From Nannocystis bainbridge (GTDB taxonomy: Bacteria > Myxococcota_A > Polyangia > Nannocystales > Nannocystaceae), in NCBI RefSeq assembly GCF_028368995.1, contig NZ_JAQNDL010000001.1:4384001-4448000 (forward strand): a stretch of DNA of 64,000 nt, in the 5' to 3' direction. Made by a program: the position numbers and the translations under genes. This document shows positions 1-62,523 of this stretch, in pieces. The notes below the pieces were generated by a model. That model searched no databases. It worked only from the letters and a program-made list of their open reading frames with translations, and was not told the origin of the DNA. Position 1 is the stretch's first letter. The number at the start of each line of letters is the position of its first letter.

Positions 1-1293
1 CTGATCGTCAACTTCGACGGCTGGACCAAGATCGTCGACTTCGGCCTCGTCAAGGCGACCAGGCTGCGCAACAGCAACCATACGGGGCACCTGCGCGGCA
101 AGCTGGCCTACATGGCGCCGGAGCAGGCCCGCGGCAAGCCGCTGTCGGCCGGGACCGACCTGTTCGCGCTCGGGGTGATCTTCTGGGAGATGCTGACGGG
201 GCGGCGGCTGTTCGCCGGCGAAGGCGACGCCGAGACGCTCGAGAGCGTGATGCGCTGCGAGGTGCCGCCGCTGCGAGAGCTGCGACCCGACCTGCCGCCA
301 GGCCTCGATTCGCTGCTGCAGCGTGCGCTGGCGCCGACGCCCGAGGAGCGCTACCCGAGCGCCGAGGCGATGCTGGCCGACATCCGCGCGCTGCTGCGGG
401 AGTGCGGCGACACCAGCGAGCCGCGGCGGGCGCTGGGGGCGATCATGCGCCACCACTTCGCGGAGCAGGCGAAGTACCGCATGGCGGCGATCCGCGGCGC
501 CTCGCGCGGCGAGCTGCGGGCGCGGCCGACTTCGCTCGGGTCGGCGCCGCTGCCGGCCGCGTCGTTGCCGCTGCCGGGCGCGGCCGACGAGCAGACCCAG
601 ACGCGCGTGCTGGCCGACGCGCGCGCGCTGGCACCTGTCCCCGACGACATGTCCTCGCCGACAGATCGGCTGGCGATCGTGCCGACGCGGCGACCGTGGG
701 CGCTGTGGCTGGCGCTGCCGCTGGTGGGCGCGGGGGTGGCGGCGGTGCTGCTGCTGTTCTTGCTGCCGCGCTGGAACGCGCTGCCGCCCGAGCCGGCGAG
801 CCCGCCCGCGCCGCAGCCGCAGCCGCAGGTGCAGCCGCCGCGGCCGAGCACGGTGGTGTGGTTCGTGTCGACCGATCCGGTGGGTGCCACGGTCACCGTC
901 AACAAGGGGCCCGAGTCGGTGCTCGCCGCGCTCGCGCCGCAGCTGGAAGGGCAAGTGACGCCGCTGCGGCTGGTGGTGCCCTACGACGATCAGGCGCAGC
1001 TGCAGCTGACGGTGACGCACTCGGGCTACAAGCCGACCCGGCGCAGCCTCATCCCGATGAACAACGAGAACTTCGTGGTCGAGCTGCAGCCGGAGGCGCC
1101 GGCGCCGGTGCCGACGGTCGCGCCGGTGACGAACACGCTGGCGAACCCGACCCCGAAGAAGAAGCCGCCGGGTGCGAAGAGCCCGGGCGCCGGCGGGAAC
1201 GATGCGACGCCGGCCGCGAGCAAGAGTGAGAAGGGCGAGGAGAGCGAGCTCAAAGACGAGCCGGTCTTCAGCCCCGTCAAGGGTGGCGGATGA
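1..1293 (+). CDS. Membrane Ser/Thr protein kinase (5'-truncated by window) with TM helix and C-terminal PEGA-like region
   Basis: Frame open from base 1: KIVDFGL, GKLAYMAPE, DLFALG, P.ERY kinase motifs; hydrophobic LWLALPLVGAGVAAVLLLFLL; STDPVGATVTVN PEGA-like start. Confidence 0.9.
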   Translation: MIVNFDGWTKIVDFGLVKATRLRNSNHTGHLRGKLAYMAPEQARGKPLSAGTDLFALGVIFWEMLTGRRLFAGEGDAETLESVMRCEVPPLRELRPDLPPGLDSLLQRALAPTPEERYPSAEAMLADIRALLRECGDTSEPRRALGAIMRHHFAEQAKYRMAAIRGASRGELRARPTSLGSAPLPAASLPLPGAADEQTQTRVLADARALAPVPDDMSSPTDRLAIVPTRRPWALWLALPLVGAGVAAVLLLFLLPRWNALPPEPASPPAPQPQPQVQPPRPSTVVWFVSTDPVGATVTVNKGPESVLAALAPQLEGQVTPLRLVVPYDDQAQLQLTVTHSGYKPTRRSLIPMNNENFVVELQPEAPAPVPTVAPVTNTLANPTPKKKPPGAKSPGAGGNDATPAASKSEKGEESELKDEPVFSPVKGGG

Positions 1294-2354
1294 GGCGAGG
1301 CCGCTGGCGATGGCGCCGAGCGACCGCCATGCTCTGCGCCGCGGTGATGACCGCGTCTCCGGTCGTTCAGGCGCAGGAGCCGGCCGCACCGGCGGTGTCG
1401 GAGGAGCCGGCCGCGGAGGGGCCCGAGAGCGCGGACGCACCGGATGCACCGCCCGAGGCGCCGGCCCCGGCGGTCGATCAGGCGGCCGCGCTGGCGTACT
1501 TCCGCGAGGGCAAGCAGCACTACAGCGAGCGCCGCTACGCCGAGGCGGCGCAGGCGTTCGCGCGCTCGCTCGAGGCGGCGTGGTCGATCAACGCGCTCTA
1601 CAACAAGGCACTGTCGCTCGATCGCGCGAGTGACCTGATCGGGGCGCTGCAGGCGTACCTCGACTACCTCCAGCACGCCGAGGCGAAGGACGAGCACCGC
1701 GTGCCCGCGCTCGAACGCAGCGAACAGCTGCGGCAGCGGCTCGGCGAGGTGTTGCTGCAGATCGACAGCCCCGAGGCGATCCGGGAGATCCGGATCAACG
1801 GCGATGCGGTCGACAAGGGCGCCTTCCCGTGGCTCACGCTCCCCGGTTCGCTCGACGTCGAGTTCGTCGGCGAGGCGCCCGGGCAGCGCAAGCACATCCG
1901 CGCCGACGTGCGCGCCGGTGGGTCGGTGACGATCGTGTTCCCCGGGTTCGTGCGGCCCGAGGTGCGGCCGGCGGACTCGCCGAGGCTGCCGCGGTTCGCA
2001 CCGGCGGAGGAGTCGCGGCGCGTCAAGGGGCTGCGCGCGGGCTTTTGGACCACGACGTCGCTCGCGCTCGCGGGCGGCGTGACGGTGGCGATCCTCGGGT
2101 CGCGCGTGCTCCTGGCCCGCGAACGCGCCCGCGCCGGCTGCGACGGCCTGTGCGAGGAGGGCGAGAAGCCGGGGCTGTATCGCACGTTCTACACGCTCCA
2201 GGACACGACCAACGTGGCGATCGTGGTGACGGCGGCGGTCGGGGTGGCCGCGCTGGCGCTGGGCATCGCCCTGCGCCGCGAGCGTGCGCGCCGGCCGGTG
2301 GCGACGCGGGCCGGTCTGCGCTGGCTCGGCTCGGCCGTCGAGCTCACGTTCTGA
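1290..2354 (+). CDS. Exported TPR protein, kinase-associated
   Basis: ATGA overlap with the kinase stop; signal-like N-terminus; TPR helices (YFREGKQHYSERRYAEAAQAF, ALYNKAL); C-terminal hydrophobic segments. Confidence 0.75.
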   Translation: MRRGRWRWRRATAMLCAAVMTASPVVQAQEPAAPAVSEEPAAEGPESADAPDAPPEAPAPAVDQAAALAYFREGKQHYSERRYAEAAQAFARSLEAAWSINALYNKALSLDRASDLIGALQAYLDYLQHAEAKDEHRVPALERSEQLRQRLGEVLLQIDSPEAIREIRINGDAVDKGAFPWLTLPGSLDVEFVGEAPGQRKHIRADVRAGGSVTIVFPGFVRPEVRPADSPRLPRFAPAEESRRVKGLRAGFWTTTSLALAGGVTVAILGSRVLLARERARAGCDGLCEEGEKPGLYRTFYTLQDTTNVAIVVTAAVGVAALALGIALRRERARRPVATRAGLRWLGSAVELTF

Positions 2355-2383
2355 GGCGCTTGCACCGGCGCGTCCGGGCTGCC

Positions 2384-3634
2384 ATGACTCACCCCATGCA
2401 AGAGCGCCGGTGGCCGACCTATGCCCTCCGCGACCTCGTCCTCGACGAAGCGGTGCCCGACGAGCGCGGCTCGCTGCGCGTGCGTGACAGCGCCGGTCGG
2501 GTCTACCTCGACGCGGTGAACGGCGTCGGCTGTGCGCCGCTCGGCCACGCGCACCCGCGGTGGGTCGAGGCCCTGACGGCGCAGATGCAGCGCCTGAGCG
2601 CCGCCGCCAACTCGTTCAGCACCGCGCCGCAGCAGCGCTTCGCCGCCGAGATCGCCGCGCGGGTGCCGGTCGTCGACGCGCGGGCGTTCATCGCCACCAC
2701 CGGCACCGAGACCACCGAGGCGGCCCTGAAGCTCGCGCTGCGGGCGACCGGGCGCAACACGATCGTCGCGTTCGAGCGGGCCTTCCACGGCCGCTCGCTC
2801 GGGGCGCTGGCGTGCACGGCCAACACCGCCTACCGCCACCCGTACGTGCGCTGCCTCGGCGAGAGCGAGCCCGCCGAGCCGTTCGCCACCGCGCGAGTGC
2901 TGCGCCTGCCGTTCGGCGACCTCGAAGCGCTGCGCCGGACCTTCGCCGAGCACGGGGCCGCGATCGCGGCGGTCTTCATCGAGACGATCCAGGGCGAGGC
3001 GGGCGTGTATCCGGCCACGCGCGAGTTCCTGGTCGGGCTGCACCAGCTGTGCCGCGAGCACGGCGCGCTGGTCGGCGCCGACGAGGTGCAGTGCGGCTTC
3101 GGGCGCACCGGTTCGTGGTCGGCCTGGTCGCACATCGTCGGCGACGATCCGTCGCTCGCGCCCGACCTGATGTGGATCGCCAAGGCGCTCGGCGGCGGGT
3201 TCCCGATCGGCGTGTGCCTCGCGCGCGGCGACCTGGCGCAGGCGATGGGCAAGGGCACCCACGGCACGACCTTCGGCGGCAACCCGCTGGCGTGCGCCGC
3301 GGCGCTCGCCAGCATCGACATCCTCGAGCGCGACGGCCTGCTCGCCGCCGCCGGGGCCCAGCTGCCGACGCTGCAGGCGATCGCCCGCGAAGAGCCGTGC
3401 GCGCGGGTGAGCGAGATCCGCGGCCACGGGGCGCTGATCGGCGTGCAGGTCGGAAAGCCCGGCGAGCAGATCGCCACCGCCGTCGGCGACCGCATGATGC
3501 GCGACCACGGCATCCTCGTCACCGTCTGCGGCGGCCACACGATCCGCCTGCTGCTGCCCTACCGCGCCGGCGCCGAGGAGCTGCGAGAGGTGTGGCGCGC
3601 GATCAGCCGCTCGCTGGAGTCCGAAGCAACATGA
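2384..3634 (+). CDS. argD: Class III PLP aminotransferase, acetylornithine aminotransferase-like
   Basis: LGHAHP, FHGRS, ETIQGEAG, DEVQCGFGRTG, AKALGGG (PLP Lys), HGTTFGGNPLAC; start set at MTHPM; substrate uncertain. Confidence 0.75.
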   Translation: MTHPMQERRWPTYALRDLVLDEAVPDERGSLRVRDSAGRVYLDAVNGVGCAPLGHAHPRWVEALTAQMQRLSAAANSFSTAPQQRFAAEIAARVPVVDARAFIATTGTETTEAALKLALRATGRNTIVAFERAFHGRSLGALACTANTAYRHPYVRCLGESEPAEPFATARVLRLPFGDLEALRRTFAEHGAAIAAVFIETIQGEAGVYPATREFLVGLHQLCREHGALVGADEVQCGFGRTGSWSAWSHIVGDDPSLAPDLMWIAKALGGGFPIGVCLARGDLAQAMGKGTHGTTFGGNPLACAAALASIDILERDGLLAAAGAQLPTLQAIAREEPCARVSEIRGHGALIGVQVGKPGEQIATAVGDRMMRDHGILVTVCGGHTIRLLLPYRAGAEELREVWRAISRSLESEAT

Positions 3635-4398
3635 CCTTCAAGCAATGTCCTAAGCAACATGTCCTGATGGCCATATCGCTGCTCGCGCCGCTCGAGCTCG
3701 GGTGCAAGCGCGAGGCCAGCGAGGCGCCCGAGTCGACGGCGGTGGCGGAGCCCGAGGCGCCCGTGCAGCAGCCGGTCGAGGCGCCCGCGAGCGAGCCGGT
3801 CGAGGCGCCCGCGCGCGACACGGCGCCCGCCGACAAGCCGCCGGGCGACGTGGTGGCCGCGAACGTGCCGACCGCCGAGCCCGCGGGCGAGGTCAAGCCG
3901 GCGACCGCGAGCGCCCTGCCTGCGGCGCTGCACACCAAGGTCGACGACTCGTGCGGGCGCGACGCCGGTGTCGGCACGAGCGCGCTGCCGTTCGCGCTCA
4001 AGACCGCCGAGGGCAAGGACATCAGCATGGCGAGCCTGCGCGGCAAGGTCGTGCTGCTCAACTTCTGGGGCACGTGGTGTAAGCCGTGCCTCAAGGAGCT
4101 GCCGGAGTTCGACCGGCTGATCCGTCACTACAAGAAGCAGGGCGCGGTGCTGGTCGCCGTGGCCACCGACACCGAGCCGGAGAAGGTGCTCGAGTTCGCC
4201 AAGGAGCGGAGGATCTCCGCCAAGCTGGTGCTCGGCGGCGAGGACCTGGCCAAGCAGTATGACAGCCCCAACTTCCCGTTCTCGTTCGTGGTCGACGAGA
4301 AGGGCACGATCCGCGGCTCGTACCGCAGCTACAAGCCGGAGTGCATCGGGCGGATCGAGCAAGACATCCGCACGAGCCTCGAGCAGAAGAAGCGCTAG
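3631..4398 (+). CDS. TlpA/ResA-family thiol-disulfide oxidoreductase lipoprotein
   Basis: LRGKVVLLNFWGTWCKPC thioredoxin CxxC motif; LGC lipobox-like; ATGA overlap with upstream gene. Confidence 0.85.
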   Translation: MTFKQCPKQHVLMAISLLAPLELGCKREASEAPESTAVAEPEAPVQQPVEAPASEPVEAPARDTAPADKPPGDVVAANVPTAEPAGEVKPATASALPAALHTKVDDSCGRDAGVGTSALPFALKTAEGKDISMASLRGKVVLLNFWGTWCKPCLKELPEFDRLIRHYKKQGAVLVAVATDTEPEKVLEFAKERRISAKLVLGGEDLAKQYDSPNFPFSFVVDEKGTIRGSYRSYKPECIGRIEQDIRTSLEQKKR

Positions 4399-7345: not shown

Positions 7346-7498
7346 TCGTCGCGTCGGGGGCATGCCCCGGGCGAGATGTCCCAAGGGACATGTCGATCGC
7401 TAGACAAGAGCGGCCTGAGCAGTGCCAGGTCGGGCAATCAAATGTCCCAGGGGACAGGTCGGCTTGAGCGCGCGGGTCGGCTTTGTTAAACCTTTAGA

Positions 7499-10942: not shown

Positions 10943-11224
10943 ATGCCCTACGTCGAGTACGCCTGCGAAGGCCGCCTGCTGTTCCGCACCGAGACCACCG
11001 AGGACGTGCAGTTCGTCCCGCGGATCCACGAGGTCGTCGTCATCGACGACGTGCCGTACCAGGTCGTCGACGTCGAGTACTGGGCCCGCCGGCTCGGCTC
11101 GACCGACCGCCGCCTGGTCTGCCCCACCGTCTACGTCGTGCCGATCGCCGGCGTCGAGTGGGAGCAGCGGCTCGAGCGCCGGGTCCCGCGCAACAAGGAC
11201 GGCAAGCCGCCCACGCGCTACTGA
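10943..11224 (+). CDS. Small hypothetical protein (93 aa)
   Basis: ATG 15 nt after the upstream stop; typical GC3-rich codons (MPYVEYACEGRLLF...). Confidence 0.7.
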   Translation: MPYVEYACEGRLLFRTETTEDVQFVPRIHEVVVIDDVPYQVVDVEYWARRLGSTDRRLVCPTVYVVPIAGVEWEQRLERRVPRNKDGKPPTRY

Positions 11225-11230
11225 CCTTTC

Positions 11231-11296
11231 GGGCATGTTTAAAGGGACATGTGCCGACGGGCATGCCCCGAAGAGCATGCCCGTGAGCACATGTCC
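11231..11296. repeat. Array of 14-bp palindromic units
   Basis: CATG junctions at 11234, 11248, 11262, 11276, 11290 (exact 14-bp period). Confidence 0.9.
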
Positions 11297-11319
11297 CGAA
11301 GGACCAGAGATCGAACTAG

Positions 11320-14837: not shown

Positions 14838-16106
14838 ATGCTCCTGCGCGATCCCGTGCACGGCCTGATCTCCTTCAGCGGCGCCACCGCCCGCCTCGCC
14901 ACGCGCCTCCTCGACTGCGCCGAGGTCCAGCGTTTGCGGCGGATCCGCGCCCTCGGCCTCGCCGCCCTCGCCTTTCCTGGCGGCGAGCACTCGCGCTTCG
15001 CCCACGCCGTCGGCGCTGCCCACGTCATGCAGCGTTACCTCGATCGCGTGCGCACCCTCGCCCAGGAGCTCCCGCCGCACGATCGCATCGATGACTTCTG
15101 GGCCCACGTCGCCCTCGCTGCTGCCCTCCTCCACGACCTCGGCCACGGCCCGCTCAGTCACACCTTCGAGGCCGTGCTCCCTGGCGCCCCGCGCCACGAA
15201 GTGTGGACCTCGCGGATCCTCCTCGACCCCGACACCCAGGTCCACCGCGTCCTCGCCGAGCTCGACCCGACCGCGCCCGCGCTCGTCGAGCGCCTCATCC
15301 ATGGTCAGGGCCCGATCGGTCACCTCGCGCGCGCCGTCTCCGGCACCTTCGACGTCGATCGCTGCGACTACCTCATGCGCGACAGCTACATGACCGGCGT
15401 GCGCTACGGCCTCCTCGACGTCGACTGGTTGCTCGCCTCGCTGCGGCTCTACGTCCCCGAGGGCTCGACCTCTGCGCGGCTCGCCGTCGACGGCGAGAAG
15501 GGCCTCACCGCCGTCGAGGGCTTCTTCCTCGCCCGCCTCTACATGTACCGCCAGGTCTACCTGCACAAGGCCGCGCGCGCCGCCGAGATGATGATCCGGG
15601 CCCTGTTCCGCCGCCTGTGCGAGCTCGGCCCCGAGCCTGGCACCCCGCCGGTCCTCGAGGATCTCTTGCGCGGCCGCCCCGTCGACATCCACAGCTACCT
15701 CCGCCTCGACGACCACGCCCTCGCCGAGGCTCTCGCCGCCTACGCTCGCAGCGCCGACCCTGTCCTGCGCGAGCTCGCCGACGGCCTCGTCGGCCGGCAC
15801 CTTTTTAAAACCTTGCGGCTCGCGCCGCACGTCGACTCTGCCGCCGCCGAGGCCCGGCTCGCCGAAGTCCTCGCCGCCGAGGGCGTCGCCCCCGCGTACC
15901 TCGGCGCCATCGACCGCGTCGAGATCGACGCCTACACCGACGACGAGGCGCTCATGGTCCTGCGCAGCGGCGGCCGCGTCCAGCGCCTGCTCGACGCCTC
16001 TCCGCTGCTCCGCGGCCTCGCCCGCGAGCGCTTCGTCCACCACCGCGCCGTCTTCCCCCCGGCCCTGCGCGCCCGCGTCTCGGCTGCCCTTGCGGACATG
16101 ACCTGA
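14838..16106 (+). CDS. HD-superfamily phosphohydrolase (dNTP triphosphohydrolase-like)
   Basis: DPVHG, QRLRRI, HSRFAH, LLHDLGHGPLSHTFE, DVDRCDYLMRD, MYRQVYLHK. Confidence 0.9.
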   Translation: MLLRDPVHGLISFSGATARLATRLLDCAEVQRLRRIRALGLAALAFPGGEHSRFAHAVGAAHVMQRYLDRVRTLAQELPPHDRIDDFWAHVALAAALLHDLGHGPLSHTFEAVLPGAPRHEVWTSRILLDPDTQVHRVLAELDPTAPALVERLIHGQGPIGHLARAVSGTFDVDRCDYLMRDSYMTGVRYGLLDVDWLLASLRLYVPEGSTSARLAVDGEKGLTAVEGFFLARLYMYRQVYLHKAARAAEMMIRALFRRLCELGPEPGTPPVLEDLLRGRPVDIHSYLRLDDHALAEALAAYARSADPVLRELADGLVGRHLFKTLRLAPHVDSAAAEARLAEVLAAEGVAPAYLGAIDRVEIDAYTDDEALMVLRSGGRVQRLLDASPLLRGLARERFVHHRAVFPPALRARVSAALADMT

Positions 16107-16228
16107 AGACCCTGTCCTGAAGGCCCTGTCCTTCAAGACCTTCTCTATCGGCCATGTCCTTGCGACCCTGTACCAGAGAGCATGCTCTCTCAGACATGTC
16201 CTTTCAACCCTGTCCTTTGAGGCAATGA
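16094..16228. repeat. Longest array of 14-bp units (about 10 junctions)
   Basis: CATG/CCTG-type junctions at 16097, 16111, 16125, 16139, 16153, 16167, 16181, 16195, 16209, 16223. Confidence 0.85.
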
Positions 16229-19139: not shown

Positions 19140-19868
19140 TCAGAGCCGCGGCGCCGCGTCGACGAGCGCCCGGGTGGCCGCGGCCTGCGGGGCGGTCAGC
19201 ACCGAAGTCACCGGGCCGGACTCGACCGGGCGGCCGCCCGCGAGCACCAGCACGTCCTCCACCGTACCTGGCAGAAAGGACAGGTCGTGGCTGATCATCA
19301 CCAGCCCGATCGACGCGGTCCGTAGCGAGCGCAGCAGGTCGACGATGGTCCAGGCGACCGGGCGGTCGAGCGCGCTCGTGATCTCGTCGACGATCAGCAG
19401 CTCCGGCTCCGCGGCCAGCGCCCGCGCGATCGCGGCCCGCTGCCGCTGCCCGCCGCTGAGCGCCCCCGGCACCCGGCCGAGCAGCTCGGGCCCCAGCGCC
19501 ACGCGCTCCATCAGCGCCGCCGCTCGCGGATCGTCCCGACCATAACGATCGCGCCCCGCCAGCAGCCGCGCCTCGTCGATGCTGCGCCGGATCGTCAGGT
19601 TGGGGTCGAGCGCCGTCGCCGGGTCCTGCCACACCAGCTGCACCCGCGCCCGCAGCTCCGCCCACGCCGCCCGCGGCGACCCGACCAGCTCGCGCCCCGC
19701 CAGCCGCAGCGAGCCCGCGAGCTCCGGCTCGAGCCCGACCAGCGCCCGCGCCAGCGTCGACTTCCCCGAGCCCGAGCGACCGATCACCGCCAACCCCGTG
19801 CTCCGCCCGAGCTCGAGGTCCACCCCGCGCAGCCGCTCGCCGACCGTCAGCCCGCGTCCGACAAGCAT
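19140..19868 (-). CDS. ABC transporter ATP-binding protein (DppF/OppF-like)
   Basis: GRSGSGKS, Q-loop, LSGGQRQR, DEITSALD, SHD; start uncertain (19868 or 19916). Confidence 0.85.
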   Translation of the reverse strand: MLVGRGLTVGERLRGVDLELGRSTGLAVIGRSGSGKSTLARALVGLEPELAGSLRLAGRELVGSPRAAWAELRARVQLVWQDPATALDPNLTIRRSIDEARLLAGRDRYGRDDPRAAALMERVALGPELLGRVPGALSGGQRQRAAIARALAAEPELLIVDEITSALDRPVAWTIVDLLRSLRTASIGLVMISHDLSFLPGTVEDVLVLAGGRPVESGPVTSVLTAPQAAATRALVDAAPRL

Positions 19869-19925
19869 GTCCTCGTGGACATGCCCTGATGAACCTGTCT
19901 CTAGAGACATGTTCATAGGGTCATC
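19863..19925. repeat. Array of 14-bp units between the two ABC ATPase genes
   Basis: Junctions at 19866, 19880, 19894, 19908, 19922. Confidence 0.85.
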
Positions 19926-20679
19926 CTCGCCGCGCCGCCGCCAACACCATCGCCGCCGTGGTCGGCTCGGGCGGCGCCGCTAGCAGCTCGGCCAGCGGTC
20001 CGCGAGCGACCATGCGCCCGCCGTCCAGCACGATCGCGCGCGCGCAGCAGCGGACCACGCGGGCCAGGTCGTGCGACACCAGCACCAGCGCCACCTGCTC
20101 GGCTGCGCAGCGCCGCACCAGCAGCTCGACCAGCTCGGCCTGGCTCACGCAGTCGAGCGCCGCCATCGGCTCGTCGGCCAGCAGCAACGCGGGGCGGCAG
20201 GCCAGCGCCAGCGCCAGGGCCACGCGCTGCGCCTGCCCGCCGCTCAGCGCGTGCGGGTGGCGATCCGCGAACTCCGCCGCGAGCCCCACCTCTTCGAGGC
20301 GCTCATTTGGACGCCCGTCCGTGTCGTGCAGCGCACAGACCTCGCGCAGCTGCGCGCCGACGGTGCGCATCGGGTCGAGGCTCGCCGCCGCGGCCTGGGG
20401 CACCAGCGCCAGCCCGCGCCCGCGCAGCTGCGCCAGCGCGTCGCGATCGGCGAGCGACACCTCGCGGCCCTCCCACTGCAACCTCCCCGTCACCTTCGCC
20501 TCGCTCGGCGCCAGCCCCAGGAGACAGCGCAGCACCAGGCTCTTGCCGGCCCCGGACGGCCCGAGCACCGCCAGCGCCTCGCCGTGATCGATCGAGAAGC
20601 ACACCCCTGCGAGCAGCGTTCGCCCGGCGATCGTGCAGCCGAGGTCGTCGACCCGCATCACGCCCAGCGTAACGCGCAC
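19921..20679 (-). CDS. ABC transporter ATP-binding protein (DppD/OppD-like)
   Basis: GPSGAGKS, LSGGQAQR, ADEPMAALD, SHDL. Confidence 0.85.
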   Translation of the reverse strand: MRVTLGVMRVDDLGCTIAGRTLLAGVCFSIDHGEALAVLGPSGAGKSLVLRCLLGLAPSEAKVTGRLQWEGREVSLADRDALAQLRGRGLALVPQAAAASLDPMRTVGAQLREVCALHDTDGRPNERLEEVGLAAEFADRHPHALSGGQAQRVALALALACRPALLLADEPMAALDCVSQAELVELLVRRCAAEQVALVLVSHDLARVVRCCARAIVLDGGRMVARGPLAELLAAPPEPTTAAMVLAAARRG

Positions 20680-30355: not shown

Positions 30356-30393
30356 CAAGATGTCTGTATAGACATGTTCAAAGGAACATGTCG
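30356..30393. repeat. Short array of 14-bp units in a divergent intergenic region
   Basis: Junctions at 30359, 30373, 30387. Confidence 0.75.
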
Positions 30394-35880: not shown

Positions 35881-35957
35881 TGATATGTCTGAACAGACAT
35901 GTCCCATGGGGAATGCCGTAAAGGACATGTCGTAAAGACAATGTCCCCGAGGACATA
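35881..35957. repeat. Array of 14-bp units between convergent genes
   Basis: Junctions at 35884, 35898, 35912, 35926, 35940, 35954. Confidence 0.85.
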
Positions 35958-36098: not shown

Positions 36099-39272
<3,174 letters not shown>

Positions 39273-43309: not shown

Positions 43310-44281
43310 ATGGAGTACACCCACGCCATGGCCGAGCCAGCCGCCGACTCGCGCGCCTCCGCGTCGCTCGTGGCCCTGTGGGTCGCGGTGCTGCTCGGGG
43401 TGGCCGGGGTCGCGATCCTCGCCGCCGGCTTCGTCGCCCCGCTGCTGGCCGGCTCGGACGAGCCCTTCCTCGAGGGACATGTCCCGAAGAACTCGCAGCT
43501 GTATCAGCGCTCGACCCCGCGGCCGCACGGCGTGCTGCACCTGGCCGGCTCGGGCAGCAACATCCCGCTGACGCGCGCCCTCGCCGACGCCTTCGTGGTG
43601 CGCGGCCACGACGCCCACATCGTCGTGTTCGAGAGCATCGGCTCGACGGGCGGGGTGATGGCCGTCTACGACGACGTCGTCGACCTCGGGCTCATCTCGC
43701 GCCCGCTGAGCGACCGCGAGCTGCACATCGGCGTCGACGCGATCCCCTACGCCCGCGTCCCCGTGGTCGTCGCCGTCAACCTGTCCGTCCCCGACACCGC
43801 GATCTCCACCACCGAGCTCGCCGACATCTTCGCCGGTCGCAAGACCCGCTGGTCCGACGGCGCGCCGATCACCGTGCTGCAGCGCGAGCGCGGCGACTCC
43901 GGCCACGCCGCCGTCGCCGCCGCCCTGCCGGCCTTCGCCGCCGCCGACGAGGCCGCCTACCGCGAGCACCGCTGGCGCGTCATCGTCCACGACCGCGCGA
44001 TGCAGGAGGCGCTTGCGATCACCCCCGGCGCGATCGGCCTGCTCGACGTCGGCGTCATCAGCCTCCAGCGCCTGCCCCTCCGCGCGCTCGAGCTCGACGG
44101 CTACGCCCCCAGCGAGGCCAGCGTGCAATCGGGCCGCTACCCCTTCTCAAAGGACCTCGCCTTCGCCGGCCTCGAGGCCCCGACCGGCCTGGCCGCCGAG
44201 TTCATCCGCTTCGCCCGCTCCGAAGAGGGCATCGCCCTGATGAAGGCCCACGGCTACATCCCGCTGCCGGAGATCCAATGA
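43310..44281 (+). CDS. PstS-like periplasmic binding protein with N-terminal TM anchor
   Basis: LAGSGS, SIGSTGG, DLGLISRPL, RERGDSG, PGAIG, GRYP motifs of the phosphate-binding PBP family. Confidence 0.8.
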   Translation: MEYTHAMAEPAADSRASASLVALWVAVLLGVAGVAILAAGFVAPLLAGSDEPFLEGHVPKNSQLYQRSTPRPHGVLHLAGSGSNIPLTRALADAFVVRGHDAHIVVFESIGSTGGVMAVYDDVVDLGLISRPLSDRELHIGVDAIPYARVPVVVAVNLSVPDTAISTTELADIFAGRKTRWSDGAPITVLQRERGDSGHAAVAAALPAFAAADEAAYREHRWRVIVHDRAMQEALAITPGAIGLLDVGVISLQRLPLRALELDGYAPSEASVQSGRYPFSKDLAFAGLEAPTGLAAEFIRFARSEEGIALMKAHGYIPLPEIQ

Positions 44282-44287
44282 CCCTCC

Positions 44288-44366
44288 GCGCAGGTTCGAA
44301 GGGACATGTTCTCGTCGCCATGTCCGATGGGGCATGCTCTCACGGACATGTCCTTCGAAGCATGAT
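44288..44366. repeat. Array of 14-bp units between the PstS-like gene and the histidine kinase gene
   Basis: Junctions at 44291, 44305, 44319, 44333, 44347, 44361. Confidence 0.88.
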
Positions 44367-46591: not shown

Positions 46592-47902
46592 ATGCGAAAT
46601 TTAGCCCTTTGCACCGCCCTGATGGCGCTGACGGCCTGTCCGGCCGACGACCCGAACACCACCGATTCGCCGACCAGCGACCCGACGACCGACGGGACCG
46701 CGTCCACGGACGGGACCGCGACGACCGACGGGACCGACGCGACCTCGACGACCGACGAGCCGACCTCGACGACCGACACGCCGACCTCGACGACCGACGA
46801 GCCGACCAGCACGACCGATCCGGGCACCACCACCGAGAGCGCCTGCGACGGCCTCGACATCCCGGCGATCGACGAGTCGGGTTGTGAGCCGCTCGCCACC
46901 GACTACCAGCCGCGCACCAACAATTCGGCCGACGACGAGTGGCCCGCGTGCGTGTCCGACACGGGCCCGTACACCCTCGTCGACAACCCGCCGAGCACCA
47001 TCGCCCGCATCGTCGCCTACGAGAACATCGCCGACCTGCTGTGGCGCAAGGCCGACCCGACGCCCGCCGACTTCACCGCCGCGCGCAGCGAGTACGTGCT
47101 GCCCGAGGGCCTCGAGTCGCGGCTCGTCCGCCGCGAGGACCTGCACTTCCCGCCGATCCCCGAGGCCGAGTGGGACCCGCAGGTCGACGCCGACAAGCAG
47201 TGCACCGTCGAGGCGCTGGCCACCAAGTACGCCGAGCGCTGCGTCGGCCCGGCGGCGATGAAGCCGCTGGTCGACGAGGCGTTCGCCGCCGGTCAGGCCG
47301 GCGAGGGCGACGCCAAGATCCACGCGGCGCGGATCCACGGCGGCCTGCTCTGGTTCCTCTACCTCTCCGTGTACAAGGAGGCCAACACCTGCGCCACGGT
47401 CGCGCCGAAGGACTGCGACTCGGCCTGGGCCTACTACACCGGCGGCGAGGCGATCGACGCCCCGATCGGCATGGCCGCCGAGGTCGACGCGATCAGCGGC
47501 AACGCCCACGAGCGGATCCACGACGGCATCCTGGCCACCCGCTGCTGGCGTGACATCGCCCAGGACGGCGGCATGTACCCGCTGCTCGAGACCCTGCCCG
47601 ACGACCAGCAGGAGCTGTTCGCGCAGGGCTGGGAGCAGCTCGACCAGGGCCTCCACCGCGGCTACGCGGTGATCGTCCGCGACCACATGCAGCAGTACGT
47701 CGACGCCTCCTGCAGCAGCGCCGACACCCAGGCCCACTGGGCGTTCCTGCAGGTCGCCGGCCCCGTGCTCAACCGCGAGGCCCAGGATCGCAACCCCGCC
47801 GAGGCCGGCAAGCTGGCCGCGCTGTGGACCACCGACGCCCCGGGCCCCGACGAGGTCACCGACGCGATCTTCGCCCTCGACGCGATCTTCCCCTGCCCGT
47901 AA
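46592..47902 (+). CDS. Acidic lipoprotein with Thr/Asp-rich linker
   Basis: LTAC lipobox; TTDEPT repeats; helical C-domain with DSAWAYYTG. Confidence 0.8.
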   Translation: MRNLALCTALMALTACPADDPNTTDSPTSDPTTDGTASTDGTATTDGTDATSTTDEPTSTTDTPTSTTDEPTSTTDPGTTTESACDGLDIPAIDESGCEPLATDYQPRTNNSADDEWPACVSDTGPYTLVDNPPSTIARIVAYENIADLLWRKADPTPADFTAARSEYVLPEGLESRLVRREDLHFPPIPEAEWDPQVDADKQCTVEALATKYAERCVGPAAMKPLVDEAFAAGQAGEGDAKIHAARIHGGLLWFLYLSVYKEANTCATVAPKDCDSAWAYYTGGEAIDAPIGMAAEVDAISGNAHERIHDGILATRCWRDIAQDGGMYPLLETLPDDQQELFAQGWEQLDQGLHRGYAVIVRDHMQQYVDASCSSADTQAHWAFLQVAGPVLNREAQDRNPAEAGKLAALWTTDAPGPDEVTDAIFALDAIFPCP

Positions 47903-47953
47903 GGGCATGCTCCGAAGGGCATGCTCTGAAGGGCATGTCCTTCAAGACATATG
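47889..47953. repeat. Array of 14-bp units overlapping the lipoprotein stop codon
   Basis: Junctions at 47892, 47906, 47920, 47934, 47948 (GGGCATGCTCCGAA-like units); a further pair at 48045/48059. Confidence 0.9.
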
Positions 47954-48108
47954 ATGAGGGCCGAGCGCCGCGCGCTCGGCCCTCTCTTCGCGAGCTGGCT
48001 CTGTCCTCGAGACTCAGCGCGCGATCAGCCTCGGCACGCGATGACATGTCCGAAGAGACATCCGAGCGGCCTCTCCGGCGCGAGCGAACGTCACGCCATC
48101 CGGAACGA

Positions 48109-54643: not shown

Positions 54644-54983
54644 ACCCCGACGCCGCCAAGGCATCGCTCCTCCCTCCGGGAGGCGGTGCCGTTTGTCGCC
54701 GGTAAAATTCCTCAGCTATCCACACGCGGCACCGATCCCCACCCCCGGGACCGGTGCCGTCGTCGCGACTGGAGATCGCTTCAAAGGCGATCTCCGAGGC
54801 CTTTCAACGACGGATGCGAAGCGATCTCCGCGGTGCATCGCGGGCGCGCCAGAGGCCCGAACAGTCGCGCGAGCGTGCCCGCGAAGAGGCCGCTCTCGCG
54901 CGAGCACGAGCATGGATGAGGCGATCTCTGTCGGAGAAAGTCGAGTGGCGCGAGCGATACGAGCCGCTCGAGCGAGAGCGATA

Positions 54984-55260
54984 CGAGCCGCGCAAGCGAG
55001 CTGTGCTCACGTGAAGAACGACCGCGCGAGCCGATGCTCCCGTCGGCCCCAGTGCGAACGTCGGCGCTCCGCTCGAGACGAGCCGCGCAAGCGAGCTGTG
55101 CTCGCGTGAAGAACGACCGCGCGAGCCGACGCTCCCGTCGGCCCAGTGCGAACGTCGGCGCTCAGCTCGAGACGAGCCGCGCAAGCGAGCTGTACCGCGT
55201 GACGAACGACCGCAAGCCGACGCTCCGTCGGCTCACGGGCGAACGTCGGCGCTCAGCTCT
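54984..55260. repeat. Three tandem ~94-95-bp hairpin-containing (REP/BIME-like) units
   Basis: Units start with CGAGCCGCGCAAGCGAGCTGT at 54984, 55079, 55173; each has a GCCGA(C/T)G...CGTCGGC hairpin. Confidence 0.9.
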
Positions 55261-58630: not shown

Positions 58631-58691
58631 GAAGCTGTACTTTGGGACATGTCCGAAGAGCCATCGGTTTGCTGCTTCTTCGGACATGTTC
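58631..58691. repeat. 14-bp units upstream of hutF
   Basis: Junctions at 58634, 58648, 58662 and 58671, 58685. Confidence 0.65.
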
Positions 58692-58709
58692 GATCGGCCA
58701 GGCACCGCG

Positions 58710-60866
58710 TCACTTGGCCTTCGCGGGGGGCGCCGCTGCGGGGGTCGCGGGCGCGGCGGCTTCGGCGGGCGGGGCGGCGAAGTAGAGCTTGCGCTCCGGG
58801 TAGTCGATCGTGAGGCGGCCGCGGCCGACGAAGTCGAGGCCGAGCATGCCGTCGATGCGGAACTGGTCGCTGCTCTCGCTCTGCTCGAAGTAGCCGTAGG
58901 CGCCGCGGAGGCCGAGGACCTTGAAGGCGTTGCCGACGGTGAACTCGGTCACGTCGACGAGGGCGGCCTCGTTGCGGCGCAGCGGCGGGGCGCCGATGCC
59001 GGCGCGGGCGAACGCCTTGGTGGTGGCGGTGACGGCGACCCCCTGCATGCCGGTGTTGACGAGGAACAGGCCCTCGGCGCCGTTCATGGCCGCGAGCACG
59101 TACAGGAAGTGGGTCTCGTGGAGGTAGAACGGGACGCCGCTGCCGGTGCGGTAGCTCGCCAGGGCGCTCTTGCACTTGGCGATCGGGTTGACGAGCACGA
59201 GCTTGTTGGCGGGCAGGTCGAAGTTGACCTGGAACAGCTCGAGCACGCGGGAGCCGAGCACGGCCTGCGGCGCCGCGCCGGCGCCTCCGGTCATCTGCTC
59301 GAGCACCTGGTGCGGGAAGATGTCGACGGGGATGCCCGAGATCGTGGCGTTGCCGGCCGTGATCGCGTCGAGCTGACCGTGACCGATCTCCGCCCCGCCC
59401 TCGCCGCCGAGCCGCGACTTCGAGCGGACCGGGATCTTCAGCTTGGCCGCGACCTCGCCGTCGAGGATCACGTCGGCCGCGCCGGTGTCGACCAGCGCGC
59501 GCACCTTCTCCTCGCCGATCTGGATGTCGACGAAGGTGACGGTGCCCTCGGTGGCGATCGGCAGCTCGGCGGTGCAGCCGTTGCCCTTGAAGCTGACCTG
59601 CAGCGGCTTGCCGGCGAAGTTGCGGTAACGGCCGGCGAGCTGGGCGTTGGCGTCGCCGAGGTGGTCGAGCGCCTCGGCGACGGCCGGGAAGTCGCGCTGG
59701 TGGCTGGCGATCCAGGCCCGCTGGGCGTGGACGAGGACGTCGCGCACGCCGGCCTTGCCGGCGCGGTCGAGGATCGGCAGGGCATCCTTGTAGCGGCCCT
59801 GCAGCACGCGCGCGCGGGCGAGGATCCACAGCGCCTCGGCCTCCTTGGGCTGGAGCTTGAGGGCGACCTGGGCGGCGTCGGCGGCCTCTTCGAAGTGCGA
59901 GGCGGCCCACAGCGCGCGAGCGAGGGCGACCTGGGCCTCGGCGTTCTTCGGCTCGGCGGCGGCGGCCTCGCGGGCCTTGGCCAGGGCGACGAGCTTCTCG
60001 TCCTTGGCCTTCTCCGGCGGCGGGACCTTGGGGACCTGGAACACCTCGGGCTTGATCGGGGCGTGGTCGATCCGCTGGGTCACGAACACGACCTCCTGGG
60101 TGCGGTCGCCGAACTTGTTGACGAGGCGGATCTTGTGGGCGACGAGGACGCCGTCGATCGGGCGGTAGTCGTCGTAGATGATCTGCTGGCTGATCGGCGG
60201 CTCGGCCTTGTCGTCCTCGAGCAGCTCCTCGGCGAGCAGGCCGGTCTTGCGGTCGTACCACTGGGTCTTCGGCGGCACGAGGTCGCCCTTGCTCGACCAG
60301 CGCACGCCGTCGAGGACCCGCGCATTGCCGTCGAAGTCCTTGTCGCGCGGCTTCTCGAGCGCGAGCTCGATGCCCCGCTTTTCGAAGTCGAAGTACCAGT
60401 GCAGCGCGGCGTCCTCGCGGGTGATGACCGACTCGTCCTCGTCCTCGAGCACGAGGAAGCCGCGGCGGAACTGCCAGCCGGTCTTGCCGTCGTAGCCCTC
60501 TTCTTCGATCTGCTTGTCGATGACGGTGCGCCGGTAGAGCCGCTGGTCGGTCGTCGACTGCAAGGTGAAGGTGCCGACGGTCTCGGTGGCCCGGCAGTTC
60601 TCGTCCTTGTCGGTGCAGCCGGTCTCCGGCAAGAAGGTCATGCGCGCCTCGACGGTGCGCTGGGCGATCTTGCGCAGGGCCTCCTCGCCGCCGAGCGCGG
60701 CGACGAAGCGGTCGACGACCGCCTTGGCCTCGGCCGGGTTGCCGTCCTTGCCACCGGGCGCGTCGAGGTCGCCGACCGGCACTTTGAGGCAGCCGGGGAC
60801 GGCAGCGGCGACGAGCGCGAGGGCGAGGCTGGCGCTCAGGCGGAGACGGCGAGGTGCGAGGGACAT
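58710..60866 (-). CDS. Lipoprotein with LolA-like N-domain, TPRs and tandem retropepsin-like aspartyl protease domains
   Basis: VPGC lipobox; ALGG...YDGKTGW...YDDYRPIDGV; TPR; ALVDTGA and FLVNTG; GMLG.DF, TIDY. Confidence 0.82.
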   Translation of the reverse strand: MSLAPRRLRLSASLALALVAAAVPGCLKVPVGDLDAPGGKDGNPAEAKAVVDRFVAALGGEEALRKIAQRTVEARMTFLPETGCTDKDENCRATETVGTFTLQSTTDQRLYRRTVIDKQIEEEGYDGKTGWQFRRGFLVLEDEDESVITREDAALHWYFDFEKRGIELALEKPRDKDFDGNARVLDGVRWSSKGDLVPPKTQWYDRKTGLLAEELLEDDKAEPPISQQIIYDDYRPIDGVLVAHKIRLVNKFGDRTQEVVFVTQRIDHAPIKPEVFQVPKVPPPEKAKDEKLVALAKAREAAAAEPKNAEAQVALARALWAASHFEEAADAAQVALKLQPKEAEALWILARARVLQGRYKDALPILDRAGKAGVRDVLVHAQRAWIASHQRDFPAVAEALDHLGDANAQLAGRYRNFAGKPLQVSFKGNGCTAELPIATEGTVTFVDIQIGEEKVRALVDTGAADVILDGEVAAKLKIPVRSKSRLGGEGGAEIGHGQLDAITAGNATISGIPVDIFPHQVLEQMTGGAGAAPQAVLGSRVLELFQVNFDLPANKLVLVNPIAKCKSALASYRTGSGVPFYLHETHFLYVLAAMNGAEGLFLVNTGMQGVAVTATTKAFARAGIGAPPLRRNEAALVDVTEFTVGNAFKVLGLRGAYGYFEQSESSDQFRIDGMLGLDFVGRGRLTIDYPERKLYFAAPPAEAAAPATPAAAPPAKAK

Positions 60867-61842: not shown

Positions 61843-62375
61843 CGCCGCGGTCGCAGCGCCTGCGCGTGCACCTGCGGATCGTCGACGGCGACGTCGCGCC
61901 GGTGGTGGCCCGCTATCGCGACCACATCCAGTGCCGGCCAGGCTGCGGGGAGTGCTGCCGCCAGAGCTTCGCGGTGTCGGAGGTCGAGGGCGAGCTGCTG
62001 CGCGAGGGGCTGGCAGCGGCAGAGCCGGCGACCCGGGCGGCGATCGTGGCCCTCGCCCGCGCGTACGCGCCAGGGACGGCGTGCCCGGCGCTGGGGAGCG
62101 ACGAACGCTGCCTGCTCTACGCCCACCGGCCGCGGATCTGCCGCAAGTACGGGATCCCGCTGTGGCACCCGGAGCGCCCGCACGAGCTGAAGACGTGCCG
62201 CCTCAACTTCCGCGGGGTGGCCGACCTCGACGCGGACCTGATCGTCGAACCCCAGGCCGGCTGGGCCGCCGACTGGATCGCGCTGCGCGAGGAGCTGGGG
62301 CTCGGACGGCAGGACAACCGCAGCATCGCGGCGTGGCTGGCCGAGGCTCCGAATCTGTCCGAAGAGACATCTTGA
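61839..62375 (+). CDS. YkgJ/CxxCxxCC cysteine-cluster protein
   Basis: CRPGCGECC, CPAL...CLLYAHRPRICR; ATGA overlap with upstream gene. Confidence 0.88.
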   Translation: MTPRSQRLRVHLRIVDGDVAPVVARYRDHIQCRPGCGECCRQSFAVSEVEGELLREGLAAAEPATRAAIVALARAYAPGTACPALGSDERCLLYAHRPRICRKYGIPLWHPERPHELKTCRLNFRGVADLDADLIVEPQAGWAADWIALREELGLGRQDNRSIAAWLAEAPNLSEETS

Positions 62376-62395
62376 AGAGAGCGCCTCGGGGCGGG

Positions 62396-62523
62396 GAGCA
62401 TGCTGCGGGAGCATGCCCGCAAGAACATGCAGGGCACGTCACGGAGCATGCCCGATAGGGCATGTCGTGGAGAGCATGCCCGATGGAACATGTAGCGAAG
62501 GGCATGTCCGATGCGACATGCCC
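62396..62523. repeat. Array of 14-bp units between convergent genes
   Basis: CATG at 62447, 62461, 62475, 62489, 62503, 62517 (exact period) plus 62399, 62412, 62426. Confidence 0.9.

Follow-up and report, generated by a model that had tools for sequence, protein, structure and literature searches.

Introduction

Short interspersed palindromes such as the REPs are among the least understood of the abundant features of bacterial genomes. Two accounts (PMC3184786; bioRxiv 10.64898/2026.03.23.713779) describe REPs as stem-loop palindromes that affect mRNA stability and read-through and that occur, lineage by lineage, in hundreds to thousands of copies, single or clustered, at the 3' sides of genes and in convergent gaps; the second account presents their spread and role as still argued even in E. 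coli. Here we report a previously undescribed, genome-wide family of palindromic units in Nannocystis that represents an extreme and clean case, with a 14-bp unit, a free loop, an exact phase and no RAYT gene, and we describe how it is built, how abundant and how widespread it is, where it lies, how its arms covary and how quickly it turns over. In common with the REP/BIME elements of Enterobacteriaceae, Pseudomonas and Stenotrophomonas (SMAG), the Nannocystis units are short, imperfect palindromes capable of forming stem-loops, as arm covariation and fold z-scores indicate. They are likewise lineage-specific, extragenic, high in copy number, single or clustered, and placed at gene 3' sides and in convergent gaps, with the caveat that 76 of 954 arrays and about half of the isolated units lie within ORFs. 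Their build is different. The unit measures 14 bp rather than about 20-40 bp, units abut exactly head-to-tail in a strict 14-bp phase, each is itself symmetric so that there is no alternating orientation, and the loop sequence is free so that copies are unlike each other; there is no GTAG-type tetranucleotide, and G+C content is lower in the arrays (55.6%) than in the genome (71.5%). We found neither copies sharing one sequence, loop and flanking tetranucleotide included, nor a cognate RAYT (Y1 HUH transposase) gene flanked by repeats: the Y1/RAYT transposase family (PF01797) matched in 0 of 11 Nannocystis genomes, in 17 of 30 other genomes and, as a control, in 6 of 14 reference genomes.

Rickettsia palindromic elements (RPEs), which look selfish, can lie in frame within protein genes, as 76 of the 954 Nannocystis arrays do, for example in the linker of TrmD; RPEs, however, are about 100-150 bp long, mutually similar and not composed of tandem micro-units, and most Nannocystis units are intergenic. 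The mycobacterial MIRU/VNTR loci resemble the Nannocystis arrays in being tandem, intergenic, variable in copy number and in touching the upstream stop codon, but MIRUs are 40-100 bp long, not palindromic and located within operons, whereas only 1-7% of short operon-internal gaps hold a Nannocystis unit. MetJ metboxes are short palindromic operator sites abutting at a fixed step, and the Nannocystis units share with them a fixed half-site spacing, a fixed site-to-site step and largely independent positions. Known tandem operator arrays of dimeric repressors are nevertheless few in any one genome and stand at promoters, in contrast to the approximately 2000 Nannocystis arrays at gene 3' sides, whose arms covary. 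Finally, the matS/MatP, SlmA and Noc sites and cyanobacterial HIP1, an 8-mer spread alike through coding and non-coding DNA, are genome-wide over-represented palindromes that also occur within genes, as the Nannocystis motif partly does. To our knowledge none of these motifs forms phased tandem arrays, and the Nannocystis arrays, unlike matS, SlmA and Noc sites, have no regional ori/ter distribution.

Results

The window referred to below is the whole 64-kb stretch of DNA that was analysed. A preliminary description made from its sequence alone had drawn attention to a pervasive TGTC-N6-GACA palindrome, and these units are real: the window contains 20 copies of the motif, where 0.66 would be expected and shuffled sequence gave 3 at most, and all of the units cited at 636, 7443, 34382, 35531, 42678 and 48938 were verified. 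The unit consensus is more precisely TGYCC-N4-GGRCA, a 14-bp palindrome, and this stricter form occurs 16 times against 0.21 expected. Because units abut head-to-tail, CATG recurs every 14 bp at their junctions; the autocorrelation of CATG spacing gave 21 pairs at 14 bp, 17 at 28 bp and 10 at 42 bp, against a background of one pair each at 13 and 15 bp, and every array cited earlier (11234, 16097, 19866, 35884, 44291, 47892 and 62447) is an in-phase chain. The abundance had been overstated, as we count 14 strict chains in the 64 kb rather than at least 20 clusters, or approximately one chain per 4.6 kb (one per 5.3 kb genome-wide) rather than one every 3 kb. That the ends and the period are kept while the centre varies holds true, though free variation is confined to the central 4 nt rather than 6 nt. 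The C and G flanking these four positions are approximately 75% conserved, and the four positions themselves are near-random but richer in A/T, against a genomic G+C content of 71.5%. The arms show sequence specificity, and information content peaks at the TG/CA ends of the unit. Isolated units are preceded by C in 77% and followed by G in 69% of cases; at array ends the proximal TG is retained in 681 of 1602 cases and the distal CA is not retained.

The same geometry extends through the 11.05-Mb genome, where a full scan returned 2074 chains and 3736 CATG pairs at 14 bp against a background of about 100. The spacer is strictly four nucleotides (2828 cases, against 93 for N3 and 54 for N5), neighbouring units abut directly 1771 times whereas gaps of 1-3 nt occur 28-78 times, and array size drops sharply beyond 6-7 cores. 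Chains are evenly distributed, with 27-68 per full 250-kb bin over five contigs; no ori/ter or regional pattern was seen in these bins, and the orientation GCATGT versus ACATGC is the only feature that tracks GC skew. The analogy to matS/MatP, Noc or SlmA sites thus fails in its one testable feature. The related proposal of selection for recognition holds in part, in that the strict N4 spacer and abutment indicate a sequence and geometry read by something, but no binding protein could be named.

Stem partners covary at the three variable pairs (odds ratios 1.77, 1.95 and 1.68; p 1e-11 to 4e-5), and similarly when units are split by the sign of GC skew (1.2-2.3). The corresponding values are 1.05 for the non-partner pairs 6-12 and 7-13 (0.8-1.2 over both analyses) and 0.54-1.30 for pairs across the unit junction. 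Predicted RNA folds of six array strands gave z-scores of -2.4 to -7.3.

With respect to genes, the units had been thought indifferent to position. Some intragenic arrays and isolated units agree with this, but there is a strong 3'-side bias and few units occur in short divergent or operon-internal gaps. An array of at least three cores lies within 200 nt downstream of 981 of 6392 called genes, with a distance peak at 7-27 nt; array starts fall mainly 0-30 nt after stop codons, and the TG of the stop codon is also the TG of the first unit in 119 of 778 cases, compared with about 55 per phase. Units are present in 54-66% of convergent gaps of 50-300 bp, in 23-38% of tandem gaps of at least 200 bp, in 1-7% of tandem gaps below 100 bp and in 1-6% of divergent gaps below 250 bp. 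By gap type, 441 of the 954 arrays are convergent and 31 divergent. Isolated units are approximately three times denser outside called genes, and 540 of 1070 fall in coding regions as delimited by a crude gene caller, some of them in a confirmed ORF. Among 102 tRNA genes, only 5 are followed by a unit within 160 nt.

The window illustrates these contexts. Two abutting units (TGTCCCCGACGACA, TGTCCTCGCCGACA; 636..663) lie inside a high-GC3 ORF, a short array of about three units, one with a degenerate core (AATG), occupies 3630..3673, and the intergenic units at 7363, 7377 and 7443 (7361..7456) are not all in one phase. An array of six in-phase units (11222..11305) stands approximately 15 nt past the 3' end of a minus-strand tRNA gene (11320-11406). 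The in-phase array at 16085..16224, with several degenerate cores (CCTG), begins in the final codons of ORF 14838..16106, and four units at 19868..19923 adjoin the stop codon of the minus-strand ORF 19921..20679. Two units at 30361..30390 occupy a gap that the crude gene caller makes divergent, a rare context. The zf-HC2/CHAT-domain ORF 31951..34884 contains isolated units at 32241..32254, 32970-32983 and 34382-34395. Also inside this ORF, on the minus strand at 34312..34329, a single unit, CATGTCC GATG GGACATG, is followed by TTTTTT and so has a terminator-like form despite its intragenic position.

Further along, the isolated unit TGTCCCTTCGGACA (35531..35544) precedes an array of 4-5 units (35886..35955) located beyond the stop of the minus-strand ORF 36099..39272. 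The four units at 41095..41150, mostly with degenerate cores (CCTG, CATG, CAGG, CCTG), are translated in frame directly after a signal peptide, and the position of this array is kept in six large genomes of the genus, that of the window among them. ORF 43310..44281 is followed, from its stop codon onwards, by an array of 5-6 units (44279..44364); units are present in the orthologous gap of five other species as well, differing in number and content. Four units at 47894..47949 begin just before the stop of ORF 46592..47902. Between this array and a single unit at 48047..48060, itself approximately 95 nt past the 3' end of the minus-strand tRNA gene 48153-48224, sits a G+C-rich hairpin that is not a unit (GGGCCGAGCGCC...GCGCTCGGCCC, with a T-rich tail; 47958..47990, approximate coordinates read off the sequence) and that is conserved across species. 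Just past the stop of the minus-strand ORF 58710..60866 lie two unit pairs in two phases (58636..58700), and a single unit, TGTCCGAAGAGACA, occupies 62356..62369. At 62412..62532 a chain of two cores leads into an array of six units that shows a 28-bp super-period, the whole adjoining the stop of the minus-strand ORF 62530..63588.

Arrays are present in 10 of 10 other Nannocystis genomes and in 0 of 30 genomes of other genera. None occurred in two 200-kb samples from sister genera, and 400 further Myxococcota genomes yielded single simple repeats only and not the array family. The load within the genus is uneven by approximately 50-fold: six large genomes each hold 409-869 four-core matches, whereas five smaller ones, among them one of 9.1 Mb in 40 contigs, hold 1-13. 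Units are also replaced quickly between species: in a pair that is approximately 96% identical, mismatches amount to 4.4% in cores, 16.1% in arms, 25.2% in centres and 7.4% in flanks, and whole-unit indels are seen. Recent slippage, which the preliminary description had discounted, does contribute, with neighbouring units near-identical in approximately 5-9% of cases against 1.7% of random pairs, although it leaves most units unexplained. Near-identical units occur at lags of 1-4, some of them inverted at lag 2; there is one case of a recent expansion, of eight copies, and some local duplications take in gene 3' ends. Core decay proceeds towards G+C. Among the 3736 units there are 2371 distinct interiors, compared with 2573-2689 in ten model draws, and only 13 of 1646 two-unit 24-mers recur elsewhere. 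The interiors resemble draws from a position-specific model and the units are not mutual copies; spread by copying is therefore without support. An in-gene array aligns without gaps to a distant genome of the genus and is therefore no simple insertion there.

Inspection by eye of the 54 genes with arrays on both sides revealed no common family. In a self-comparison of the genome, none of 156 repeat clusters was an element with a CATG target duplication, and we rejected MITEs on this ground and for want of recurring copies. The genome encodes about ten N6/N4 methyltransferases, and no C5 methyltransferase was found in it. A single D12 methyltransferase does not track the arrays, because 22 of the 24 other genomes in the family have it as well.

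Discussion

Our preferred interpretation, which we hold tentatively, is that the units form a genus-specific family of very short palindromic repeats with a REP/BIME-like function and a different build. Each 14-bp unit could form a 5-bp stem with a 4-nt loop, extendable to 6-7 bp through flanking A/T or C/G. The position of the units, mainly 0-30 nt past stop codons or inside convergent gaps, makes it probable that they are transcribed as 3'UTR, in which they would form single or multiple stem-loops. If the parallel with REPs holds, such structures would impede 3' exonucleases and lessen the read-through from one gene into its neighbour or convergent partner, and the arrays may in this manner act on 3' ends at the RNA level. 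Canonical terminators, a hairpin plus T-run, are scarce in this genome, being found at 248 of 3653 array-free 3' ends. At the DNA level the arrays behave as a quasi-palindromic minisatellite, in which units are gained, lost and overwritten through slippage and direct or inverted templating within the array, and decay through AT-to-GC changes in the core. The strict 4-nt loop, together with the sequence specificity of the arms, suggests a putative protein that reads the hairpin. Several observations sit uneasily with a REP-like role. The covariation is modest, and a first, coarser test showed none; G-U pairs are tolerated on the sense strand at only one of the three pairs once replication skew is separated; and the loop is 4 nt long approximately 30 times more often than 3 or 5 nt, beyond what hairpin stability demands. 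Arrays and isolated units within genes are likewise odd for a purely 3'UTR device, sister genera manage without the element, and the failure to find a RAYT gene, the unlikeness of the units and their rarity behind tRNA genes also count against this reading. The contrast in load within the genus and the absence from its sisters make the questions of spread and role testable, and genome comparisons inside the genus could identify which protein reads the units or makes them. The system is also amenable to 3'-end mapping, as tandem mini-hairpins may stand in for U-tract terminators at 71% G+C.

It is conceivable, though we consider it doubtful, that the element is instead a site in duplex DNA for a dimeric protein, as was first proposed, with either the 14-bp palindrome or the GGRCATGYCC junction as the recognized sequence. 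Such dimers would line up next to one another along an array, one every 14 bp and to a maximum of about six units, and the protein could form a roadblock or an insulator at the ends of genes or be nucleoid-associated. The strict half-site spacing and abutment, the specific arms with their information peak at TG/CA, the A/T-enriched centre and the sharp drop in array size are all in accordance with this model, and isolated units are over-represented in genes, with 540 in coding regions compared with 23-93 genome-wide when these arms are set at other spacings. A symmetric dimer bound to the duplex, however, would not be expected to leave partner-specific covariation in the arms. The arrays show no regional or ori/ter pattern, units turn over fast between species and the sister genera lack the element. 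Placement, moreover, equals the expectation from insertion tolerance alone, and no candidate protein emerged, the D12 methyltransferase included.

That the arrays have no function for the cell, and are the by-product of a sequence-specific DNA process surviving wherever insertions are tolerated, appears unlikely. The process might be a quasi-palindromic minisatellite that propagates itself through hairpin slippage and template switching, CA|TG scars left by a putative nuclease or transposon, or a HIP1-like drive tied to a methyltransferase or repair system. Genus restriction with uneven load, quick turnover, local duplications that include gene 3' ends, in-frame arrays such as that of TrmD, decay of cores towards G+C, and direct and inverted near-copies within arrays would all be consistent with such an origin, and every unit reads TG...CA, resembling the many DDE transposon ends that start with TG and end with CA. 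In-place divergence of centres, however, predicts far more 3- and 5-nt spacers than the approximately 5% seen, which implies either ongoing constraint or a very exact generator. More than half of the convergent gaps are filled, and the gapless alignment of the in-gene array speaks against this origin as well. The self-comparison produced no element bearing a CATG target duplication, and a search that covered the D12 and C5 methyltransferases found none that tracks the arrays.

A further variant, which we judge to be quite improbable, has the phased units as loading sites, on duplex DNA or on nascent hairpins, for a putative Nannocystis-specific protein that would terminate or insulate transcription in over half of the convergent gene pairs. 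If true, this would amount to factor-dependent termination or insulation without U-tracts in a genome poor in canonical terminators. The N4 spacer, the abutment, the arms and the cut-off at about six units would then represent the geometry of a protein oligomer.

The interpretation of units as ordinary intrinsic terminators, a hairpin followed by a U-tract, is largely refuted and highly improbable: arrays lie where terminators sit and the minus-strand unit at about 34311-34330 does precede a T-run, but such runs follow only 68 of 1120 single units (6.1%) and 3.7-5% of arrays, compared with 296 of 10000 random CATG sites (3.0%), the flank composition after arrays shows no T-rich stretch, and the array at 47.9 kb has beside it a distinct hairpin, conserved and ending in a T-rich tail.

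The junction decamer GGRCATGYCC fits the p53 half-site consensus RRRCATGYYY, and the top matches in the literature on GGACATGTCC were all p53 papers. We regard this likeness as a coincidence of sequence, and a search of the genome, run without a positive control, found no P53-domain match. On a practical level, the arrays would confuse the calling of gene starts and gene ends and offer a genus-specific marker, and short-read metagenome contigs break at two of the arrays in the stretch that was compared.

Results

Within the window, TGTC-N6-GACA, the form in which the element was first noticed, occurs 20 times against 0.66 expected, with a largest count of 3 in 100 dinucleotide-preserving shuffles, and for the stricter TGYCC-N4-GGRCA the count is 16, with 0.21 expected. 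The matches to the looser form include all six isolated units singled out in the preliminary description, and the arrays named there are all present among the 14 chains in which CATG cores, the joints of two abutting units, follow one another in phase when the window is printed in 14-base rows. Its claim that these junctions recur at exactly 14 bp also held, since among the 215 CATG sites of the window 21 pairs are spaced by 14 bp, 17 by 28 and 10 by 42, and one each by 13 and 15 bp. A looser scan, allowing up to two mismatches, recovered the same clusters together with additional degenerate ones. The N. bainbridge genome (11.05 Mb in five contigs, 71.5% G+C) holds 39,940 CATG sites, which form 3736 pairs at 14 bp versus 72 at 13 and 262 at 15, with harmonics at 28 (2073), 42 (1586), 56 (751) and 70 bp (383). 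Chaining them genome-wide yields 2074 arrays of 2 to 16 cores (1120 with two cores, 347 with three, 276 with four, 210 with five, 91 with six, 24 with seven and 6 larger), which sum to 71,884 bp at 55.6% G+C. Contigs covering the window from four soil metagenome runs are fragmented and of low depth, and some of them stop at arrays.

The repeating unit is the 14-mer TGYCC-N4-GGRCA, as originally written, and CATG is the joint between two units. We assign the boundaries in this way because array ends retain the proximal TG of the next in-phase core in 681 of 1602 cases and the distal CA in only about 7%, because apparently lone junction decamers have complete outer arms on both flanks, and because 1070 of the 2828 strict units lack CA or TG flanks (C precedes in 77% and G follows in 69%). 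Between cores the consensus reads Y (T.57, C.31), C (.77), C (.75), N4, G (.71), G (.72) and R (A.61, G.25), with about 60% A/T at the two middle positions. Degenerate internal cores, mostly CCTG, CAGG, CATT and AATG, indicate that core decay runs largely towards G+C. The junction decamer (GGACATGTCC) coincides with the p53 half-site consensus; a search of the genome for a p53 domain, run without a positive control, returned no match.

Gene context, taken from a crude GC3-based caller (6392 genes, 76% coding) that undercalls genes and over-extends their starts, places the arrays predominantly behind genes. The 954 arrays of at least three cores fall in convergent gaps (441), tandem gaps (311), divergent gaps (31) and called coding sequence (170), in a genome whose gaps over 30 bp number 1129 convergent, 2713 tandem and 1009 divergent. 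A unit is present in 54-66% of convergent gaps of 50-300 bp, in 23-38% of tandem gaps of 200 bp or more, in 1-7% of tandem gaps under 100 bp and in 1-6% of divergent gaps under 250 bp. Arrays in tandem gaps lie, at the median, some 30 nt past the upstream stop codon and 240-330 nt short of the following start, and 981 of the 6392 genes have an array of at least three cores within 200 nt downstream, the first perfect core falling most often 7-27 nt past the stop. The TG of the stop codon is itself the TG of a unit in 119 of 778 cases, versus about 55 per phase. Translation termination is ruled out as the sole logic of this placement, since arrays also follow tRNA genes, though rarely (a unit lies no more than 160 nt downstream of 5 of the 102, and upstream of 1). 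Arrays are evenly distributed along the contigs, each full 250-kb bin holding 27-68.

Several structured RNA genes lie in the window itself, all on the minus strand: an SRP RNA (8392-8487) clusters with tRNA genes at 8508-8592 and 8640-8724, and two further tRNA genes occupy 11320-11406 and 48153-48224. A strict unit match at 11347-11360 falls within the long tRNA gene at 11320-11406 and is identical in all 14 bases to the unit at 16085-16098. No Rfam family matches any array of the window.

Units also occur inside genes, and 76 of the 954 arrays lie within one open frame with high GC3 in that frame on both flanks. The array at 41095-41150 is translated just past a signal peptide, at a position kept in the window genome and in five other large genomes, where its cores are mostly degenerate. 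The TrmD linker holds an array whose position is occupied by units in each of the nine other Nannocystis genomes that gave a match, and a methyltransferase-like gene carries a two-unit array that lines up gap-free with a distant Nannocystis member and so is not a simple insertion there. Among the 1070 isolated strict units, 540 lie in called coding sequence, set against a background of 23-93 genome-wide for the same arms at other spacings. At least four such units sit in the unannotated middle part of the ORF at 31951-34884 (plus strand, 977 aa), which carries a Pfam-confirmed N-terminal zf-HC2 (anti-sigma-like) finger and C-terminal CHAT domain. Elsewhere in the window, an ORF contains a long low-complexity tract at 7052-7287, (CGG)n or GGC-rich and showing periods 3, 12, 24 and 42, which is probably translated as a glycine-rich stretch.

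Units are not copies of one another. Their interiors comprise 2371 distinct sequences among 3736, whereas the ten listed draws from a first-order model with position-specific terms had 2573-2689. Two-unit words seldom turn up a second time (13 of 1646), and those that do are mostly in contig-end duplications. Near-identical pairs, with at most two differences over 10 positions, make up 5-9% of the unit pairs at lags 1-4 of an array, versus 1.7% of random pairs, and some arrays are fresh expansions or carry 28-bp or 42-bp super-periods. Higher-order palindromes, suggested by some folds, were considered and set aside; inverted similarity of units is enriched within arrays at lag 2 only, and weakly so (3.9% versus 1.6% at two or fewer differences). 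The orthologous gaps of five other species all hold units, differing in number and content, and they also show other inserts and local duplications that take in the 3' end of a gene. Whole-unit gains and losses are seen in 32 arrays aligned between two species that share about 96% identity over 200 kb, and the mismatch is 4.4% for cores, 16.1% for arms, 25.2% for centres and 7.4% for flanks. By our own arithmetic rather than a fitted model, this profile fits ordinary point divergence with about one quarter of units replaced. Since the core is where any two units will align, such figures alone are no proof that the core is under selection.

Repeats of other kinds were also seen. Positions 54979-55259 of the window hold a G+C-rich tandem repeat with a 95-bp period (3.0 copies, 92% matches) that has no relation to the 14-bp unit, and similar repeated inserts of about 100 bp, likewise G+C-rich, break up arrays in orthologous gaps of other Nannocystis (loci L113 and L116; a region of genome G007). 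The end of contig C5, at about 711,000-717,000 (locus L137), is a near-perfect large inverted duplication with ORF lists mirrored between strands; its arrays are common to the start of contig C2, and it looks like a fold-back assembly artefact.

Four in-phase cores occur 869 times in the window genome, 409-527 times in five Nannocystis genomes of 12-13 Mb and 1-13 times in five smaller ones, one of which is 9.1 Mb in 40 contigs. There were none in 30 genomes of other genera, and the reversed pattern was absent from every genome scanned. In 400 further genomes of the phylum, 15 had 1-5 matches and, among those listed, nearly all were simple tandem repeats of a single short unit. When six cores were sought across the whole collection, 13 of the 80 loci listed came from N. 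exedens, N. pusilla, N. radixulma and N. sp.; the others came from many unrelated taxa, almost all with one locus each. The 200-kb samples of two sister-genus genomes lacked phased 4-mers of any sort, and the same scan recovered the 14-bp signal in two Nannocystis samples. A viral origin was rejected, the strict two-unit consensus occurring in 0 viral contigs versus 49 in the window's genome.

The search for a maker or reader of the arrays covered several candidates. A Y1/RAYT transposase was found in 17 of 30 other genomes searched and in 0 of 11 Nannocystis genomes. A mobile-element origin was likewise rejected, as none of 156 repeat clusters in a self-comparison of the genome has CATG duplications or YCC...GGR ends. 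The 54 genes with arrays on both sides belong to no evident common family, and one array-flanked gene that is repeated three times lies in a palindromic contig end resembling an assembly artefact. The single D12 adenine methyltransferase (C1:3591256-3592308, locus L184) does not track the arrays, since 22 of the 24 other genomes of the family also have it; a few further families in the class have matches too. By eye, the translations immediately upstream of it are Pal/OmpA-like and YbgF/CpoB-like, and solved structures gave no match to it by sequence. For the N6/N4 DNA methyltransferase family there were twelve matches in about ten genes, a large number for one genome, and for the C5 family there were none; the ICEA/NlaIII-type Pfam gave no match in a search whose control likewise matched nowhere.

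Discussion

A first coarse pairing test (mutual information, and Watson-Crick fraction against expectation) gave no signal. The refined test, in which each stem pair was limited to the consensus and its transition variants across all 3736 units, gave odds ratios of 1.77, 1.95 and 1.68 for the three variable pairs across N4 (p = 1e-11, 8e-11 and 4e-5), with 0.54, 0.94 and 1.30 at mirrored positions across the CATG joint and 1.05 and 1.05 for non-partner controls. Two further controls reached 1.48 and 1.38, deviating as strand skew would predict (it pairs T with G), and the pattern persists when units are split by the sign of GC skew (2.31, 2.15 and 1.90 in the larger stratum). The arms of one unit are held complementary beyond the consensus expectation, which therefore argues for a stem-loop in single-stranded DNA or RNA, or for hairpin-templated mutation. 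Tolerance of G-U on the sense strand is clear at one of the three pairs only, so the RNA-level signature is weak. Six array strands fold more stably as RNA than their shuffles do (z-scores of -2.4 to -7.3), as expected of any palindrome.

The element resembles REP/BIME sequences, as these are characterized in a published review (PMC3184786), in where it sits, how many copies it has, its confinement to one lineage, its covarying stem-loop potential, its clusters and its occasional in-frame copies, and on this match of features we read it as a very small, strictly phased variant of that kind. Unlike members of the REP-RAYT family, from which it is excluded, it has no transposase and its copies share no common sequence. 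A 2026 preprint (bioRxiv 10.64898/2026.03.23.713779) describes one E. coli REP as a partly Rho-dependent terminator and mRNA stabiliser. We tentatively favor, with somewhat restrained confidence, a reading of the Nannocystis arrays in which they would be transcribed within 3'UTRs, their units may then act in RNA as a stem-loop barrier, and the arrays would evolve as a quasi-palindromic minisatellite.

The geometry of the unit bears on two other explanations. With the same arms, a spacer of 4 nt occurs 2828 times genome-wide, versus 93 for 3 nt, 54 for 5 nt and 23-91 for other spacings, and units abut with a gap of 0 nt 1771 times, versus 28-78 for gaps of 1-3 nt. This means that something of fixed geometry reads or makes each unit, and any protein that binds the arrays is one that we infer. 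The exact spacer, exact abutment and sequence-specific arms therefore sustain both the model of the preliminary description, in which the arrays are double-stranded operator arrays, which we consider doubtful, and an account of them as a non-functional by-product of a sequence-specific DNA process, which we judge unlikely. That the element marks a dedicated protein-dependent termination or insulation system seems rather improbable. Ordinary intrinsic terminators are essentially excluded as an explanation; a T-run follows 6.1% of single units, 3.7-5% of arrays and 3.0% of random CATG sites. Across the genome, few array-free 3' ends carry a hairpin with a T-run (248 of 3653), and a conserved, separate G+C hairpin with a T-rich tail adjoins the array at 47.9 kb of the window.

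In keeping with the initial impression that the motif was not a described one, we found no description of it in open-access papers and preprints. The Nannocystis element offers a clean natural system in which to study the origin and role of RAYT-less palindromic repeats.

The arrays also carry a strand signal, GCATGT being preferred over ACATGC according to replication strand and, independently, to the direction of the upstream gene. GC skew near 4.25-4.5 Mb of contig C1, which carries the window at 4384001-4448000, is unusually strong (about +/-0.06-0.10 per 250 kb). Because its sign flips near 4.5 Mb, at the cumulative-skew minimum, the window lies about 60-100 kb from what is probably an origin of replication or a skew switch at contig level.
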